DNA of 64,000 bases from Bdellovibrionales bacterium (GTDB lineage Bacteria; Bdellovibrionota; Bdellovibrionia; Bdellovibrionales; UBA1609): contig JAPPLY010000057.1 in NCBI GenBank assembly GCA_028819305.1, positions 30,432 to 94,431 on the forward strand. The letters are read 5' to 3'. Under the pieces are notes generated by a model, which saw only the letters and a program-made list of their open reading frames with translations, made no database searches and was not told the origin of the DNA. Of this stretch, positions 3,890 through 24,233 are shown one piece after another; within the stretch, counting starts at the first letter, position 1; each line of letters begins with the position of its first letter. A program made the position numbers and the translations under genes.

Positions 3890-4702
3890 GTGAGGAAGAA
3901 AGTGAATATTAAAATTATTATAGGCTTAAGTAGTTTATGCTTACTTTCTCTTTTTGCCCTATTAGCCCCTCTTATTCGTCCTTATGATCCTTTAGCTATG
4001 AATTTATCCCGTTTGCTAGAGGTTCCTAGCTTAAAACATCCTTTCGGTTTGGACGAAAACGGAATGGATCTGCTCTCTCAAGTGCTTTACGGCGCGCGTG
4101 TTTCTCTATGGGTGGCAGGACAGGTAGTGTGTATTAGCCTTTTAGTGGGCTTGATGGTAGGTTCTATATCGGCTTGGTTCGGTTCGGTTGTAGATCAGAT
4201 TTTAATGCGTTTGGTGGATATGGTTTCGGCTTTTCCAAGATTTTTGTTGGCCTTAGCTCTTTTAGCTATGTTGGGGACTAGTGTGTTTAATTTGATTTTA
4301 GCTCTTTGTCTTTCCGGGTGGGCGGGCTTTGCCCGTTTAGTCCGAGCAGAAGTTTTACATCTGAAGAAAGAAGAGTATGTTTTAAGTGCTTTATCTTATG
4401 GAGCTGGTCCCGTAAGAGCTATGGTTTGTTATATCTGGCCCAATCTTTTAGGGCTTTTGTTAGTGCAAGCGGCTTTTTCCTTAGTGGCGGTGGTAATAGC
4501 GGAAGCGGGTTTAAGTTTTTTAGGTTTAGGAGTGCCGCCGGATATCCCTAGCTGGGGCCGGCTTTTAAGTTCGGGCCGGCAGGTTTTGGGAGAGGCCCCT
4601 CACTTAAGCCTTTTCCCAGGGCTTGCTTTATTTTCTTTAGTTTTAAGTTTTCAGCTTTTAGGAGATGGTTTAAGGGATTTTTTTGATCCTACCACTCAAT
4701 AA
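3890..4702 (+). CDS. ABC transporter permease, DppC/OppC family
   Basis: 270 aa. HPFGLDENGMDLLSQVLYGARVSL and the C-terminus PGLALFSLVLSFQLLGDGLRD are typical OppC/DppC blocks. GTG start 17 nt after the upstream permease. Confidence 0.85.
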   Translation: MRKKVNIKIIIGLSSLCLLSLFALLAPLIRPYDPLAMNLSRLLEVPSLKHPFGLDENGMDLLSQVLYGARVSLWVAGQVVCISLLVGLMVGSISAWFGSVVDQILMRLVDMVSAFPRFLLALALLAMLGTSVFNLILALCLSGWAGFARLVRAEVLHLKKEEYVLSALSYGAGPVRAMVCYIWPNLLGLLLVQAAFSLVAVVIAEAGLSFLGLGVPPDIPSWGRLLSSGRQVLGEAPHLSLFPGLALFSLVLSFQLLGDGLRDFFDPTTQ

Positions 4703-4913
4703 AGCCAGGGGGGGTTAATTGGTGCACTTCTTGGCAAAGTTGGTAAGCTAAAAAGAAAAACAACTCAATAAAGCCAGGGGGTTTAATTGGTGCACTTAAC
4801 TAGTTTATATGAAGTGTGATGGGGATACCTGGTTCAATAAGCCAGAAGATTTTTCCTGAAAGTAGTCTCTTTTTATAACACTCAATAAACCAAGAGGATT
4901 TTATTTGGTGAAG
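4694..4913 (+). repeat. Decaying tandem array of four copies of the dppC stop / RBS / start junction (family J related)
   Basis: actcaataaagccagggggggttaattggtgcactt 4694-4729; actcaataaagccagggggtttaattggtgcactt 4763-4797; ttcaataagccagaagatttttcc 4833-4856; actcaataaaccaagaggattttatttggtgaag 4880-4913. Copy 1 contains the dppC stop. Copy 4 contains the nagZ SD and TTG start. Confidence 0.8.
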
Positions 4914-5993
4914 AGTATGCAAACAAATGTTTCCATTTGGATAGGAATAAAAAGTTTTTCTTTGTCCCTGGAGGAAAAAAGAGCTATCGAGGAAGGCTTT
5001 ATTTCCGGAGTGCTTCTTTTTAAAAGAAATATAGAATCTTTATCTCAGCTATGGGAACTATGTCAGGAAATTCATAGTTTAAGACCGGCTCCCATCATTG
5101 CTATAGATCGGGAAGGGGGAGAGGTGGATCGCTTAAAACATCTCCCGGAGTATCCTCTTTGGCCTTCTCCAGCCGAACTGGCCCGGGTCTGTTCTTTAAA
5201 AGAGATTGAAAAAACCGCACTCTATATGTCTCAGGAAATAAGAGATTTAGGTATCTGTGTTAATTTTGCACCCTGTGTGGATATTCCCTCTGTATGTAAT
5301 CCTCTTTTTAAAGGCCGGCTTTGGGGAAAAAACTCAAAATCTATATCAGAAAAAGCGATCGCCTGGTTAAAGGGAGTTAAAAAAGCGGGATTAGCCTCTT
5401 GTGCAAAGCATTTTCCAGGTCATGGAGGAGTGAAGGAAGACTCCCATTTCGAGTTGCCAGTAGATCAAAGGAAATTTGAAATATTGAAAAATAGAGATAT
5501 CTTACCTTTTCAGGAAATGATTACGGAGAAAGTGGATATGATTATGACAGCACATGTGCTTTATCCTGAAGTGGATGCTCTTCATCCCGCCACTTTGTCT
5601 TCCTTTTTTTTACAAAAAGGGCTGAGAGAGAAAATGTCCTTTTCAGGACTGATTGTTTCTGATGATTTAGATATGAAAGCTTTGTATAAGGCCAATACTT
5701 CCTTACCGCAAGTTATGGTGCAGGCCCTGGAAGCCGGGGTGGATATTTTGTTAAAATGCAGTCCTTGTGCAAATGGATGGGAATGGGTGGAGGAGTTTAA
5801 GGAAGCTTTGAGTCAAAAAAAAATAGATCGGGAGCAAATTCAAAAAAATAAAGCAAGAGAGATTCGTATAAGTCAATTTAGGCAACAGTACTCTCACATA
5901 AAACCCTGTTCGTCTTTTAAAGGCTTAAAAAAAAGGTCCCAAAGTTTTGGGAACTGGTGTGATGAGTTACACAAAAGAATAGAGTCCATATAA
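4905..5993 (+). CDS. nagZ: Beta-N-acetylhexosaminidase NagZ (GH3, peptidoglycan recycling)
   Basis: AKHFPGHGGVKEDSHFELP (KHFPGHG...DSH motif) and GLIVSDDLDMKAL. SD aagagga lies 6 nt before the TTG at 4905. Confidence 0.85.
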   Translation: MVKSMQTNVSIWIGIKSFSLSLEEKRAIEEGFISGVLLFKRNIESLSQLWELCQEIHSLRPAPIIAIDREGGEVDRLKHLPEYPLWPSPAELARVCSLKEIEKTALYMSQEIRDLGICVNFAPCVDIPSVCNPLFKGRLWGKNSKSISEKAIAWLKGVKKAGLASCAKHFPGHGGVKEDSHFELPVDQRKFEILKNRDILPFQEMITEKVDMIMTAHVLYPEVDALHPATLSSFFLQKGLREKMSFSGLIVSDDLDMKALYKANTSLPQVMVQALEAGVDILLKCSPCANGWEWVEEFKEALSQKKIDREQIQKNKAREIRISQFRQQYSHIKPCSSFKGLKKRSQSFGNWCDELHKRIESI

Positions 5994-6109
5994 TAAGAGT
6001 TTAAAACACGATGGGTCTAATTTTAGAGATTAGGTTTTTTTTGTTATTATGAATTGATGGTATAATAAAGTTATTAGTGTTTTTTGTTTAAAAGGGATGG
6101 AAAAAAATA
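5901..6109 (+). repeat. Direct repeat DR1 (209 bp): last 93 nt of nagZ plus 116 nt downstream
   Basis: Read base by base against 6781-6990. The two are identical except for an A8 versus A9 homopolymer (5927-5934 vs 6807-6815). Confidence 0.95.
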
Positions 6110-6196
6110 CCCGTAGGGTATAGTGTTTTTCCTAAGAGAATAGAGGTCAAAGAGCTTCAGGCATGTGTTTTGCCTCTATGGATAAGGCAGAAAACC

Positions 6197-6229
6197 TTGA
6201 CTTTTTCTTAAAACAAGCTGATATATATT
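6197..6229 (+). promoter_or_regulatory. Possible sigma70-type promoter for hicBA
   Basis: TTGACT at 6197-6202, followed 17-21 nt later by a TA-rich run (gatatatattatac) offering several -10 candidates. Not resolvable by eye. Confidence 0.3.
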
Positions 6230-6363
6230 ATACTTGGCAAGTTGAGTTCTTCGGGGGAAGTTTTTTATTATGATAATATACTCAATCCGGTTTGAATCCT
6301 CCAAGAGAAAAGAAACTTTGAAGGACGCAAATTCTATACCAGTTCGGATAGAATAAGGAACTT

Positions 6364-6570
6364 ATGAGACAAATTATCATTAAACCAGGGGAAGATGGGT
6401 TTTGGCTCGCTGAATGTCCTAGTTTGCCCGGTTGCCTTAGCCAAGGACAATCCAAAAAAGAAGCTATAAAAAATATTCAAGAAGCTGTTGAGGGGTATAT
6501 TGAAGTTTTACAACAAGATGGAGATCCCATACCTGAAGATAATATGGAATCTGTCATTGTAGCAATATGA
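6364..6570 (+). CDS. hicB: HicB-family antitoxin (UPF0150 fold, short form)
   Basis: 68 aa. EDGFWLAECPSLPGCLSQGQSKKEAIKNIQEAVEGYIE is the classic HicB N-domain pattern. ATGA overlap with hicA. Confidence 0.85.
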   Translation: MRQIIIKPGEDGFWLAECPSLPGCLSQGQSKKEAIKNIQEAVEGYIEVLQQDGDPIPEDNMESVIVAI

Positions 6571-6779
6571 GCAAACTCCCCGTCCTTTCTGGCAAAGAAT
6601 GTGCTCAAATATTAAAAAGATATGGATTTGAGTTTCGCAGGCAGAAGGGAAGTCATATCATTTTACGGCATAGCTCTTCTAAAATACTTCTTACAGTACC
6701 TAATCATAAAGAACTTGATAGAGGAACATTAAGAGCTATTATCAGGCAGTCAGGGTTAGATATGAAAAAATTTTGTTGA
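6567..6779 (+). CDS. hicA: HicA mRNA-interferase toxin
   Basis: 70 aa. LKRYGFEFRRQKGSHIILRH...LTVPNHKELDRGTLRAIIRQSGL matches the HicA/YcfA signature (GSH...H.. .l..gtl..Il.q.gl). Confidence 0.85.
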   Translation: MSKLPVLSGKECAQILKRYGFEFRRQKGSHIILRHSSSKILLTVPNHKELDRGTLRAIIRQSGLDMKKFC

Positions 6780-6780
6780 T

Positions 6781-6874
6781 AAACCCTGTTCGTCTTTTAA
6801 AGGCTTAAAAAAAAAGGTCCCAAAGTTTTGGGAACTGGTGTGATGAGTTACACAAAAGAATAGAGTCCATATAA
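6781..6874 (+). pseudogene. Detached, frame-shifted copy of the last ~31 codons of nagZ
   Basis: This is the portion of DR2 corresponding to nagZ 5901-5993. It has an extra A in the homopolymer, no start codon and no upstream gene body. Confidence 0.7.
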
Positions 6875-6990
6875 TAAGAGTTTAAAACACGATGGGTCTA
6901 ATTTTAGAGATTAGGTTTTTTTTGTTATTATGAATTGATGGTATAATAAAGTTATTAGTGTTTTTTGTTTAAAAGGGATGGAAAAAAATA
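6781..6990 (+). repeat. Direct repeat DR2 (210 bp), second copy of the nagZ 3' end plus downstream sequence
   Basis: Starts immediately after the hicA stop (TGA 6777-6779). See DR1. Confidence 0.95.
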
Positions 6991-7076
6991 GACATATAGT
7001 TTTTTATTTTATCTAAACATGAGATATACCGATCAGGTTTGAAAATGCCGGATGTAAAGACGGGGTAGTTCGTAGC

Positions 7077-7106
7077 AAAAGGGATGGAAAAAAATACCCG
7101 TAGGGT
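7077..7106 (+). repeat. 30-bp direct repeat, partner of 6090-6119
   Basis: aaaagggatggaaaaaaatacccgtagggt occurs identically at 6090-6119 and 7077-7106. A truncated 20-nt version ends DR2 (6971-6990). Confidence 0.9.
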
Positions 7107-7127
7107 TTTTATAGGATTGTCGTTTTT

Positions 7128-8156
7128 ATGAATCGTTTTTTAGCTTTTTTTCTTGTGTCTTTTCTTTTGCACCTAACAGTAGGAGCTTTTCTGCTTTCTC
7201 GCTCTGGTGTGTTAGGGGGAAAAGGGGTAGAAAGCACGGAGTTAACTGACTTAGAAGAAGTTTCTATGGAAGCATCCCCAAGCGGAGAAACGGAAACAGA
7301 GATTTTAGAAAAAAAAGTAAAAAAAATAAAATCTCCCCCCCTTCCTAAACCAAAACCTAAAAAAAAGAGGAAGAAAAAACCGGTTAAAACTCCATCGGCT
7401 TCGTCTCCGCTAAAAAAACAAGCACCCCCGGTGACTAAGCCGCCTATTGTGTCTGAACCCGCTAAGACGAAATCAGATGGAAAAGAGAGGGAAGAGACAG
7501 TTTCCAAGCAAAAGCCGGACCAAGGGGAATCAGAAGAAGTACCTGAAAAAACTTTAGAAAAAAAGAAAGAAACAAAAGAGGAATGGGTGGATGAGAGCGA
7601 AATCGTGCCTCCCCCCACCTCCTCAGCTCCGCCTGAAAAAGCCGAACCAAAAGAAGAAAAAGAAGCTCCTCGTGATGTAAAAAAACAGGAGTCTCAAGGG
7701 GAGTTAAAAGAACCAAAAGCCTCTCCACCGATAGAGGGGGAAGAAAAAAAACCAGATGAAAACCAAAAACCTTCTGTTCCTCCACCGGGGGCGCAGATGG
7801 AAAAAAGCGAGGTTCCTTCTTTAGATGTGGGGGCCGCTCGTATGCACAACCAGTTAAAACAATTGGAAGGTAACCCCCTTCCCGTTTATCCTAAAGAGGC
7901 TTTAAAAAAAAGATGGGAAGGAAGAGCAGAGATATTTTATTATGTCAATCGAGCCGGGTTTGTGGAAAAAATTCAGCTTAAAAACTCCTCCGGGCATTCT
8001 GCTTTAGACAATGCAGCCCTTCGTGCTCTATCTCGTTATCGCTATTACCCGGGTCAAGAAGGCTGGGTCAAACATCCCGTGGAGTTTCTTTTGGATTTAA
8101 GTAAGGAAGTAAAAGAGATCGCTCCCTTAGGAACCTCCACCCCTCCTCCACAATAA
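7128..8156 (+). CDS. TonB-family energy transducer
   Basis: N-terminal TM (FLAFFLVSFLLHLTVGAFLL), a long Pro/Lys/Glu-rich spacer, and a C-terminal TonB_C block PVYPKEALKKRWEGRAEIFYYVNRAGFVEKIQLKNSSGHSALDNAALRALSRYRYYP. Confidence 0.8.
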   Translation: MNRFLAFFLVSFLLHLTVGAFLLSRSGVLGGKGVESTELTDLEEVSMEASPSGETETEILEKKVKKIKSPPLPKPKPKKKRKKKPVKTPSASSPLKKQAPPVTKPPIVSEPAKTKSDGKEREETVSKQKPDQGESEEVPEKTLEKKKETKEEWVDESEIVPPPTSSAPPEKAEPKEEKEAPRDVKKQESQGELKEPKASPPIEGEEKKPDENQKPSVPPPGAQMEKSEVPSLDVGAARMHNQLKQLEGNPLPVYPKEALKKRWEGRAEIFYYVNRAGFVEKIQLKNSSGHSALDNAALRALSRYRYYPGQEGWVKHPVEFLLDLSKEVKEIAPLGTSTPPPQ

Positions 8157-8245
8157 AGCCAAAGGCTTTTAATTGGTAAACTTATGTAGAATTTCTGTTT
8201 CCCCTGTCTTTCTTTTAAAGCCAAAGGTTTTTGTTGTTGTGAAAT
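8151..8245 (+). repeat. Two family J copies spanning the tonB-like stop codon
   Basis: caataaagccaaaggcttttaattggtaaactt 8151-8183 (contains stop TAA 8154-8156) and ttaaagccaaaggtttttgttgttgtgaaat 8215-8245. A further aaagccaaaaatctaatt lies at 9097-9114. Confidence 0.6.
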
Positions 8246-16446: not shown

Positions 16447-17196
16447 GTGGTTTATGTGAAAAAAAAAGAGGCTAGACCAGCCCCTTTGCCACTTCAGCAT
16501 CTCGCTGTTATTATGGACGGTAACGGACGGTGGGCTGAAAAAAAAGGCTGGCCTCGTTATTTCGGTCATTTTCGCGGAGTAAAATCTTTGCGGCAAATGG
16601 TTAAGAGTTGTTCCAGGTGGGGTATTCCTTATCTTACTGTCTTTGCTTTTAGTACAGAAAATTGGAAGAGATCTTCTATAGAAGTATCTGTTATAATGAA
16701 ACTGATGAGTCGTTCTCTAACACGTTATCAGCAGGAGTTGGACAGAAATCAAATTCGTTTACATGTTTTAGGAAATTTAGAGGAGCTAGCCCCTTCTGTT
16801 CGTAATATTTTTAATGAAATGGTAGAAAGAACAAAAAACAATACCGGTCTTAAACTTATTGTAGCTGTGAATTATGGAGGTCGGCAAGAAATTATTCAAG
16901 CGGTCCGGGCTATCTCCCGCGCGGTTAAAGAGGGACAGATGGAAATAGATAACATAACCGAGGATCATTTTTATTCTTATATGAGTTCATCTGTGTTTCC
17001 CCCTCCAGACTTGATTATTAGAACAGGGGCGGTGAGCCGTTTATCTAACTTTTATTTGTGGACAGCGGCTTATTCTGAGATCTATGTTAGTGATGTTCTT
17101 TGGCCAGATTTTAATGAAGCTGAGCTAAAAAAAGCTTTGCATTTTTATACCCAAACTTCGCGTCGGTTTGGGGCAGCCTCTCTCGAAAGAAAGTAA
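16447..17196 (+). CDS. uppS: Undecaprenyl diphosphate synthase
   Basis: HLAVIMDGNGRWA, LTVFAFSTENWKR, IRTGAVSRLSNFYLWTAAYSE. Confidence 0.95.
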   Translation: MVYVKKKEARPAPLPLQHLAVIMDGNGRWAEKKGWPRYFGHFRGVKSLRQMVKSCSRWGIPYLTVFAFSTENWKRSSIEVSVIMKLMSRSLTRYQQELDRNQIRLHVLGNLEELAPSVRNIFNEMVERTKNNTGLKLIVAVNYGGRQEIIQAVRAISRAVKEGQMEIDNITEDHFYSYMSSSVFPPPDLIIRTGAVSRLSNFYLWTAAYSEIYVSDVLWPDFNEAELKKALHFYTQTSRRFGAASLERK

Positions 17197-23395: not shown

Positions 23396-23986
23396 ATGTC
23401 TCTTTTTAATTATAACTCCAAGGAAATTCATTGTAAGGTCATCTATTACGGTCCGGTAGGAGCTGGTAAGACCACTAATATCAAATGGATCTGCCGAAAT
23501 ACTTTAGATCAAAAGTGGGATGTGTTTTCCATTCCTTTGCAGACAAAACCCAGCGCTTTCTTTGATTTTTTGCCTTTGGATATCGGTTCCATTCGGGGGT
23601 TTAAAACGCGATTTCACCTTTATACCATTCCGGGAAATGATTTATTTGAAACTTCTCAAAAACTCTTGTTGAAGGGAGTTGATGGTATCGTGTTTGTTGT
23701 GGATTCACAAAAAGGTAAAATGGAGGAAAATGAAAAATCTATGAACCAGCTAAAACAATATTTAAGTGAAGAAGGCTTATCTTTAGAAAAAATTCCTATG
23801 GTTATACAGTACAATAAAAGAGATCTACCGGATATTCATTCTATTACACATATTCGTACAGCCTTAAATTATTATAATCATCCTGATTTTTCAGCTTGTG
23901 CTGAAAAAGGGCAAAATGTTTTTGAGCCTTTAAAAACGCTTTTAAAGATGGTCCTTACTGTTCTGAAAGGGGGTCGTTTTCAATAA
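23396..23986 (+). CDS. mglA: MglA-family Ras-like small GTPase (gliding/polarity GTPase)
   Basis: Collinear with my recollection of the M. xanthus MglA sequence. NYNSKEIHCKVIYYGPVGAGKTTN, FFDFLPL, IRGFKTRFHLYTIPGN, LLKGVDGIVFVVDSQ, VIQYNKRDLP. Starts 2 nt after the recR stop. Confidence 0.9.
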   Translation: MSLFNYNSKEIHCKVIYYGPVGAGKTTNIKWICRNTLDQKWDVFSIPLQTKPSAFFDFLPLDIGSIRGFKTRFHLYTIPGNDLFETSQKLLLKGVDGIVFVVDSQKGKMEENEKSMNQLKQYLSEEGLSLEKIPMVIQYNKRDLPDIHSITHIRTALNYYNHPDFSACAEKGQNVFEPLKTLLKMVLTVLKGGRFQ

Positions 23987-24233
23987 TCCTTGAGTTTACT
24001 ATGTAATAATTTCTCCATGCGCCAAAGTTCTGAAAGGGGGGTGCTTTCAATAATCCTTGAGGAGAACAATCTGGAATTTTATTTTAAATGTTTTGAGATA
24101 AGGTCGTTTTCAATTCTTCTTAAAAAAGGTCTTTTACTGTTTGATGAGTTTGTTCCGTTTGGTTTTATTTTCTTAAAAATGGTTTTTATAAATTTATTAG
24201 TCAGAAAAGTGTTTCAATTATAGAATCTTAAGG
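23960..24233 (+). repeat. Decaying tandem array of copies of the mglA 3' end (stop-codon-spanning 35-mers)
   Basis: gttctgaaagggggtcgttttcaataatccttgag 23960-23994 (contains stop TAA 23984-23986); gttctgaaaggggggtgctttcaataatccttgag 24027-24061; gagataaggtcgttttcaattcttcttaa 24095-24123; tcagaaaagtgtttcaattatagaatcttaagg 24201-24233. The period is ~67 bp for the first three copies. Confidence 0.8.

Follow-up and report, generated by a model that had tools for sequence, protein, structure and literature searches.

Probable insertion-duplication of a hicBA cassette between nagZ and tonB in a Bdellovibrionales genome

Some integrative elements carry a replacement 3′ end for the gene that they target, as do phage 21 and e14 at icd of Escherichia coli and the islands that target tRNA genes. 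The hicAB genes of Haemophilus influenzae reportedly lie in the hif/purE-pepN hotspot, where repeated intergenic sequence bounds a variable spacer between core genes (Mhlanga-Mutangadura et al. 1998, among the references of PMC8812261). Homology-facilitated illegitimate recombination (HFIR) and the displacement of gene 3′ ends have been described (PMC5361080, citing de Vries & Wackernagel 2002 and Prudhomme et al. 2002), as have transformation-driven tandem duplications, which in pneumococci span 100 to 900 kb and involve repeats the size of insertion sequences (IS) (PMC3784515). Here, we analyze a stretch of DNA from an uncultured Bdellovibrionales bacterium (metagenome-assembled genome GCA_028819305.1, contig JAPPLY010000057.1 of 121,340 nt, positions 30,432 to 94,431) in which a hicBA toxin-antitoxin cassette lies between nagZ and a tonB-family gene, with a direct copy of the nagZ 3′ end on either side. 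We refer to the whole 64,000-nt stretch as the window, and all positions below are counted from its first letter, on the plus strand unless stated. We read the arrangement, at a probability of about 0.6, as a recent insertion-duplication that arose by illegitimate or short-homology recombination, formally of the Campbell type, and not as the product of an att system.

One duplicated segment on both sides of the hicBA block

A preliminary description of this DNA had reported two nested families of direct repeats around hicBA, and our alignments reproduce the repeats themselves. Compared base by base, positions 5901 to 6109 recur at 6781 to 6990 with a single difference, a run of eight A's (A8; 5927 to 5934) versus one of nine (A9; 6807 to 6815), and this 210-bp pair is the sole long direct repeat in the window. 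The 30-mer AAAAGGGATGGAAAAAAATACCCGTAGGGT is present in exact copies at 6090 to 6119 and 7077 to 7106. No further copy was found at up to three mismatches in the 64-kb window, the stretch searched for it as a possible recurrent attachment site, and matches appeared in 0 of 100 shuffles.

The two repeat families are nevertheless a single duplicated segment, because a global alignment of 5901 to 6119 (219 nt) with 6781 to 7106 (326 nt) yields 219 identical columns out of 219, broken only by the 1-nt indel in the A run and by one gap of 106 nt. The ends of this gap fall within a 20-mer, AAAAGGGATGGAAAAAAATA, which forms the first 20 nt of the 30-mer and is present three times, starting at 6090, 6971, and 7077. 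With this 20-mer labeled b, the other parts of the locus are a (5901 to 6089, with a′ for its second copy), c (CCCGTAGGGT, starting at 6110 and 7097), X (6120 to 6780), and Y (6991 to 7076), and the layout reads nagZ...a-b-c-X-a′-b-Y-b-c-tonB. The 106 nt of the gap are Y plus one b (6991 to 7096); they are found in copy 2 only and are bounded by b repeats at 6971 to 6990 and 7077 to 7096. The nesting is an internal indel and involves no second pair of sites. Likewise, the 30-mers, which had been proposed as an independent att-like pair bounding the block, are the right end of the same duplicated segment and look separate only since the left copy is without Y and b.

Copy 1 (a-b-c; 5901 to 6119) begins with the final 31 codons of nagZ, continues through 116 nt of intergenic DNA that hold a putative tonB promoter, and ends with the 10-nt c; its 30-mer divides into b at 6090 to 6109 and c at 6110 to 6119. 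Copy 2 (a′-b-Y-b-c; 6781 to 7106) comprises a noncoding copy of the nagZ 3′ end with the A9 run, a TATAAT at 6942 to 6947, Y, and the second b-c. The duplicated unit thus starts at nagZ codon −31 and stops 21 nt short of the tonB ATG, with X at its novel junction. The nagZ-tonB spacer measures 1134 nt in the window; without c-X-a-b (881 nt), it would measure 253 nt, and without 987 nt, it would measure 147 nt.

Empty sites in relatives and source of the cassette

The two nearest relatives come from a protein search of a large protein collection. In both of them, L084 (NagZ 81% identical; P0122) and L085 (NagZ 74% identical; P0123), nagZ is followed by a tonB orthologue, 176 nt and 120 nt away, respectively, with no hicBA, and orthologous TonB N termini are encoded 3′ of nagZ. 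The downstream gene order priA, rpsB, tsf is common to L085 and the window, and the L084 contig stops inside tonB. A scan of GTDB species representatives with NagZ gave best relatives at 38 to 39% identity, while a JGI metagenome scan with a 22-mer common to the window and L084 returned 0 matches. Comparison with the nearest relatives supports the view, already put forward in the preliminary description, that the block is an insertion beside a duplicated nagZ 3′ end.

Among the 30 C-terminal NagZ residues encoded by the repeat, K329, P330, S333, L337, K338, W347, C348, and L351 are invariant across nine homologues. Because the NagZ tail encoded there is conserved, we regard the nagZ-attached A8 copy as the functional native end and a′ as a noncoding duplicate. 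Homology to the nagZ-tonB spacers of both L084 and L085 is clear in the intergenic part of a (0/500 shuffles), and a −10 box upstream of tonB is conserved as TATAAT in the window and in L084 and as TACAAT in L085, with TGG preceding it in the window and L085. The putative tonB promoter, with an extended −10 (TGgTATAAT), has been duplicated along with the rest of the segment. Its second copy would serve tonB, while its first (TATAAT at 6061 to 6066) faces the hicBA block and would point into the insert.

The arrangement a-b-Y-b-c is probably ancestral, with Y plus b belonging to the native tonB leader and the left copy being a deletion derivative. We favor this order because no transposon is known to make a 20-bp “target duplication,” while 20-nt direct repeats commonly recombine to delete the DNA between them. 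The 5′ end of Y and four bases of b match the tonB leader of L085 (AATAGACATATAGTTTTTTAT versus AATAAACATATAGGTTTTTAT; 2/500 shuffles), with the shared pattern ACATATAG[T/G]TTTTTAT. Similarity between Y and the L084 spacer was not significant, and searches with lenient gaps were swamped by AT-rich noise. Y was also compared with the promoter part of a as a possible diverged copy, which was rejected as not significant (238/1000 shuffles). A segment paralogous to part of Y lies in the hicB leader, where 6258 to 6296 matches 6998 to 7043 at 34 of 38 positions plus a 10-nt gap (score of 33 versus 17.2 ± 2.6; 0/1000 dinucleotide shuffles). The same leader (6245 to 6300) holds the 10-mer GTTCTTCGGG, identical to the −35 region of the L085 tonB promoter. 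Together, the 10-mer and the match to Y hint that the cassette or its leader may have recombined earlier with a spacer of the nagZ-tonB type.

HicA homologues at 91 to 93% identity are found in other metagenome-assembled genomes, and at the DNA level, positions 6348 to 6783 are 90.6% identical to L083 and 89.2% identical to L082. No other match to the locus was found in the rest of the 20-kb neighborhoods of L082 and L083. The hicBA genes of L082 belong to a defense island with AbiE, methylases, HNH, and Vsr, and those of L083 belong to one with ParE, AAA_14, and an ISL3 transposase; in L087, they stand beside smpB in a defense island with a SacI-type restriction-modification system, GmrSD, and Rpn, and L086 is a sponge-metagenome contig carrying the same cassette. 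Since the 89 to 91% DNA identity is confined to 6348 to 6783 and is found in these unrelated contexts, the comparison indicates a foreign and mobile hicBA. Past the hicA stop, homology to the other cassettes ends within 1 to 4 nt, exactly at the start of a′. On the upstream side, 6167 to 6231 aligns with the hicB promoter region of L083 (score of 40 versus 19.8 ± 2.5), and 6114 to 6151 aligns with what follows a 145-nt repeat in several cassettes of L082 and L083 (scores of 29 to 31; 1 to 3/1000 shuffles). Because both stretches match cassette upstream regions, the whole of X (6120 to 6780; 661 nt), which is absent from L084 and L085, is a cassette from that pool with a promoter of its own. 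Its G+C content of 0.35 to 0.37, versus 0.37 for the window, is uninformative. Recurrent insertion of hicBA at nagZ was not seen: in L087, the one genome checked that has both genes, hicBA is the copy beside smpB. A relic of an IS3-type transposase C terminus (...SLGYLTPQEWEIRLKKQEEI...) with no intact gene lies on the minus strand at 27271 to 27370 and is 80% identical to a relic directly downstream of hicA in L082 (10305 to 10405).

In L082, L083, and L086, defense and toxin-antitoxin genes form same-orientation arrays, with a repeat of ~145 nt (83 to 94% identical) between cassettes. Repeat-bearing stretches were located in L082 (5155 to 5307, 7826 to 8017, 9560 to 9740, 12108 to 12286, and 14453 to 14651), L083 (3559 to 3751, 6515 to 6664, 7974 to 8164, 9500 to 9700, and 11568 to 11717), and L086 (1 to 110). 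The repeat, whose ends base-pair, contains four TAACC iterons and has ...CCGGAGTATCCCGTAAAAATCCCGTAAAG at its 3′ end. Rfam gave no match for it, the only Rfam match in each of L082 and L083 being a tRNA, and no integrase was seen near the arrays in 20 kb. The L083 island adjoins a tRNA (16565 to 16647, minus strand). Inspection by eye ruled against reading the repeat as attC, its boxes being in reversed order (R″ RYYYAAC ... R′ GTTRRRY), and a 19-mer of the element gave just two single matches in the JGI metagenome scan. The 145-nt element may be an undescribed cassette-array repeat.

Junctions, mechanism, and competing explanations

At the right junction, the cassette end ...TGATAAA joins nagZ ...CATAAAACCC, with ATAAA common to both; at the left junction, host ...CCCGTAGGGT joins cassette ...(A)GGGT/GAGT-ATAG..., with 4 to 5 nt in common (AGGGT). 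In addition, host AAAAATACCCGTA and the donor-element end AAAAATCCCGTA are alike at 12 of 13 positions. With ~5 nt of microhomology at each end, the joins point to recombination of an illegitimate or short-homology kind and away from a site-specific event. An illegitimate step at the level of microhomology is needed, and an att system is not required.

There are no terminal inverted repeats at the ends of X (6120 and 6780), no inverted repeats connect these two ends, and neither attC nor a tRNA was found in the window. A Pfam scan identified an integrase, recombinase, or transposase in 0 of 50 open reading frames of at least 90 amino acids in the 64 kb; no tyrosine or serine recombinase was found among them, in or beside the element, in line with the earlier remark that no integrase or attC is visible. 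Insertion as an IS, a miniature inverted-repeat transposable element (MITE), or another transposon was rejected, given no terminal inverted repeats, no transposase, and a duplication of 219 or 326 bp versus the 2 to 14 bp expected. An integron cassette was likewise rejected, with no attC at the cassette 3′ end and no intI or attI in the window, and the motif ATACYN6GGTTTGAA, considered as a genome-wide element, occurred at chance level. Conversely, the direct repeats are copies of the native target segment (219/219), and L084 and L085 carry the empty site, as expected of a Campbell-type event. The Campbell-type integration that had been proposed thus holds for the layout, which is formally that of a single crossover; at the ends, ~5-nt microhomology calls for an illegitimate step.

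In the sequence of events that we favor, a 661-bp hicBA cassette from the defense-island cassette pool of related Bdellovibrionota/Oligoflexia genomes would have entered the nagZ-tonB spacer. Its left end would have joined the host just past ...CCCGTAGGGT, 21 nt upstream of the tonB ATG, and its right end would have joined at ATAAA in nagZ codon −31, with the joins made through short or patchy homology (~5-nt microhomology and, at the left, the 12/13-nt resemblance). Because the host breakpoint of the left end (after 7106) lies downstream of that of the right end (5901) on the host map, an interval of ~326 bp would have come to stand on both sides of the cassette. An equivalent route would be a Campbell-type single crossover of a small circle composed of X and that interval. 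The upstream copy would then have lost 106 nt by recombination or slippage between the 20-nt repeats, or it would have been templated from an allele already without them, and this loss would account for what looks like a “second” 30-bp repeat. The 881-bp c-X-a-b would be deleted by RecA-dependent recombination between the 210-bp repeats, leaving nagZ-a-b-Y-b-c-tonB, while a 987-bp deletion allele would join a-b-c directly to TTTTATAGG. Homologous excision, as the preliminary description had anticipated, is plausible given the near-identical repeats and the presence of recA in the window, which encodes RecA, RecR, and RecX. The toxin-antitoxin pair may select against such a loss, and since its loss is expected to be counterselected, the repeats may persist.

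The left junction also creates a hairpin, GGAAAAAAATACCC-GTA-GGGTATAGTGTTTTTCC (6099 to 6132), from host b-c and the first bases of the insert. Its RNA fold has an energy of −11.1 kcal/mol (z of −2.7), whereas the native copy folds at −4.2 kcal/mol. On both strands the hairpin is terminator-like, with terminator-like matches at 6107 to 6121, and transcripts started at promoter copy 1 would run through it into the cassette.

With regard to the assembly, the join between X and a′ has just five bases (ATAAA) common to its two sides. Because this shared sequence is too short, the join is not an assembler invention, and a nagZ 3′ fragment does follow hicA in real molecules. The A8 and A9 variants differ at a point 26 nt into the repeat, and each is phased to its own left flank. 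Logan contig L001 (1222 nt; run SRR10996925) equals positions 6961 to 8182 at 100% identity, supports the joins of b to Y, Y to b-c, and c to tonB, and passes the second 30-mer unbroken. It begins exactly 30 nt (k − 1, with k = 31) before the fork at which a-b continues to c or Y, which is therefore as expected for a real repeat with both continuations in the reads.

Another reading of the same assembly is that the cassette is not integrated as drawn, the chromosome being nagZ-a-b-Y-b-c-tonB accompanied by a separate 881-bp circle or tandem multimer (a-b-c-X), or the reads stemming from a mixture of strains with and without the cassette, with the assembler having threaded the loop once through the shared 210-bp repeat. 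The 175 identical bases beyond the A run exceed the usual short-read k-mers, and the two-in/two-out graph would be the same either way; L001 breaks exactly at the fork, and that Logan run has no recorded HicA, HicB, or complete NagZ. However, a circle of 881 bp, having no replication function, could be maintained only as a product of excision from the integrated form, the A8/A9 difference tells two copies apart, each linked in phase to the flank on its left within 35 nt, and the absent Logan products may reflect short contigs, as X would assemble to ~730 nt. We consider this reading unlikely. The insertion might instead be old and fixed, with the repeats kept identical by gene conversion, which is common between close direct repeats; the loss of 106 nt from copy 1 and the diverged Y-like piece in the leader of X do suggest some history. 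Against such age, the insertion is missing in relatives at 81% and 74% NagZ identity, the copies are identical at 219 of 219 columns whereas the hicBA coding region is 89 to 91% identical to its closest known relatives, and only a homopolymer slip separates the two copies across 209 nt, which together make an old arrangement highly improbable.

A site-specific, att-like integration would take the palindromic b-c (GGAAAAAAATACCC-GTA-GGGT...) as the core for a recombinase acting in trans that also moves the cassettes of the 145-nt arrays, with the 30-mers as attL and attR. The 30-mer does stand on both sides of the whole inserted block, the site is an imperfect palindrome that the left junction lengthens, the donor 145-nt element ends in AAAAATCCCGTA...AGGGT, much like AAAAATACCCGTAGGGT in the window, and the hicBA cassette of L082 is bracketed on both sides by ...TCCCGTAAAA (family D6). 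Yet the block between the 30-mers holds 210 bp of host DNA (a′-b) plus Y, which is not expected of a site-specific cassette, and it is the hicA stop and ATAAA, rather than the 30-mer, that mark the right end of the foreign DNA. One duplication with a 106-nt indel accounts for the whole pattern, there is no recombinase gene in the 64 kb and no third copy of the 30-mer in the window, and the CCCGTA coincidence is post hoc, with 19 occurrences in the window on both strands. Altogether, we judge att-like integration decidedly unlikely. A related idea is that an undescribed, integrase-poor system that shuffles cassettes in sponge-associated Bdellovibrionota/Oligoflexia relatives uses the b-c palindrome (AAAAATACCC-GTA-GGGT) as a genuine secondary target. 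Such a system would be the builder of the defense and toxin-antitoxin arrays with the 145-nt repeat ending ...ATCCCGTAAA, and the window would represent an off-array capture of one of their cassettes; we give this only a slim chance.

Several points count against the insertion-duplication that we prefer. The ancestral status of Y depends on short similarities (2/500 shuffles for L085; not significant for L084), and since the nearest relatives are just 74 to 81% identical in NagZ, the time of insertion is loosely bounded. The b-c host site is the center of an imperfect palindrome and includes CCCGTA, the same 6-mer that ends the 145-nt repeat of the donor arrays. This resemblance keeps a site-directed mechanism alive, although we give little credence to a real site-directed system. 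The Logan data for SRR10996925 contained TonB but no HicA, HicB, or complete NagZ product. A cassette-free subpopulation or a free circle may therefore exist; either would produce the same assembly graph as integration in every cell.

Genes, other repeats, and comparison with known systems

The gene assignments made from the open reading frames alone were confirmed by Pfam. nagZ (4917 to 5993) encodes a GH3-family beta-N-acetylhexosaminidase (PF00933; E = 4e-62) that exactly matches MDE0119513.1; its ATG start gives this 358-amino-acid NCBI product, with an alternative TTG at 4905. The tonB-family gene (7128 to 8156; MDE0119515.1) matches TonB_C (PF03544; E = 3e-14). Between them, hicB (6364 to 6570) encodes a 68-amino-acid antitoxin (PF15919, E = 2e-9, and PF21748; MDE0119514.1, HicB_lk_antitox), and hicA (6567 to 6779) encodes a 70-amino-acid toxin (PF07927, HicA_toxin; E = 5e-21). 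HicA covers profile positions 1 to 58 of 58 and has a GSH motif (...QKGSHIIL... in the translation), consistent with the catalytic His of a type II HicA domain, and it is adjacent to HicB, with its RNase-H-like N-terminal fold, in one operon, the start of hicA and the stop of hicB overlapping by 4 nt (ATGA; 6567 to 6570). HicB matches positions 3 to 58 of a 123-position profile, as in the short, UPF0150-like form, and no C-terminal DNA-binding domain (ribbon-helix-helix or helix-turn-helix) for autoregulation was found in its 68 residues. By these domain matches, the pair is a member of the HicAB family with a short HicB. The order hicB-hicA is opposite to that of E. coli hicAB and the same as in L082, L083, L086, and L087. 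No NCBI protein accession exists for HicA despite the consecutive accessions MDE0119513 to MDE0119515 for NagZ, HicB, and TonB, and hicA was apparently not called in the deposited annotation although its reading frame is intact. An Rfam scan of 5500 to 7600 returned no matches, and an exact-product lookup of a 414-amino-acid neighbor likewise found none, TonB alone leading to an independent contig.

Other repeats in the window also lie at gene ends. A 35-nt unit (GTTCTGAAAGGGGGTCGTTTTCAATAATCCTTGAG) is present three times at 23960 to 24124, with periods of 67 and 63 nt, and its first copy includes the last codons and stop of a small-GTPase reading frame (23396 to 23986), making it a second, smaller duplicated gene 3′ end. 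Repeats of 35 to 42 nt resembling repetitive extragenic palindromes (REP-like; ...CAATAAAGCCNNGGGGTTTAATTGGTRMACTT...) are found at or just past the stop codons of several genes (2419 to 2613, 4688 to 4915, and 8142 to 8198), and contig L001 terminates inside the copy at 8142 to 8183.

The locus offers a natural example of a very small toxin-antitoxin module entering a conserved core-gene spacer without a mobile-element vehicle and with its neighbors unharmed. The duplication preserves the native C terminus of NagZ and would regenerate the tonB promoter and leader, such that neither core gene is damaged, and the near-identical 210-bp repeats provide a built-in test of whether a chromosomal toxin-antitoxin pair guards against recombinational loss. 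For annotation, the second nagZ 3′ fragment should be treated as a footprint and not as an independently arisen pseudogene.

Among known processes, HFIR similarly places foreign DNA beside a conserved gene end through short-homology or microhomology joins, with the displaced gene 3′ end downstream, but classical HFIR usually deletes recipient DNA instead of duplicating it. Transformation-driven tandem duplications (PMC3784515) share with this locus a tandem duplication that has new material at its junction. Phage 21 and e14 also leave a copy of the target-gene end on each side of the insert and a functional gene; they encode an integrase and recombine at a defined att core, whereas this locus has no integrase and its duplication also spans the promoter and leader of the neighboring gene. 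Cassettes of sedentary chromosomal integrons resemble the insert in being small toxin-antitoxin modules, and the close relatives of hicBA stand in same-orientation arrays with the ~145-nt repeat. Unlike integrons, however, the window has no attC, IntI, or array, and in the relatives' 145-nt repeat the order of the GTT...AAC boxes is the reverse of that in attC. The likeness to H. influenzae hicAB involves a different phylum and different repeats. As in Campbell-type integration, the insert lies between direct copies of a chromosomal segment, both flanking genes are intact, and the event would be reversible by homologous recombination; in contrast, the locus has no vector, origin, or marker, the cargo is only 661 bp, and the ~5-nt microhomology at its ends means that an illegitimate step would be needed to build the circle, which is hypothetical here. 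The locus leaves current concepts unchanged: it is a new instance of known processes, an ordinary footprint of gene acquisition rather than a new kind of mobile element.

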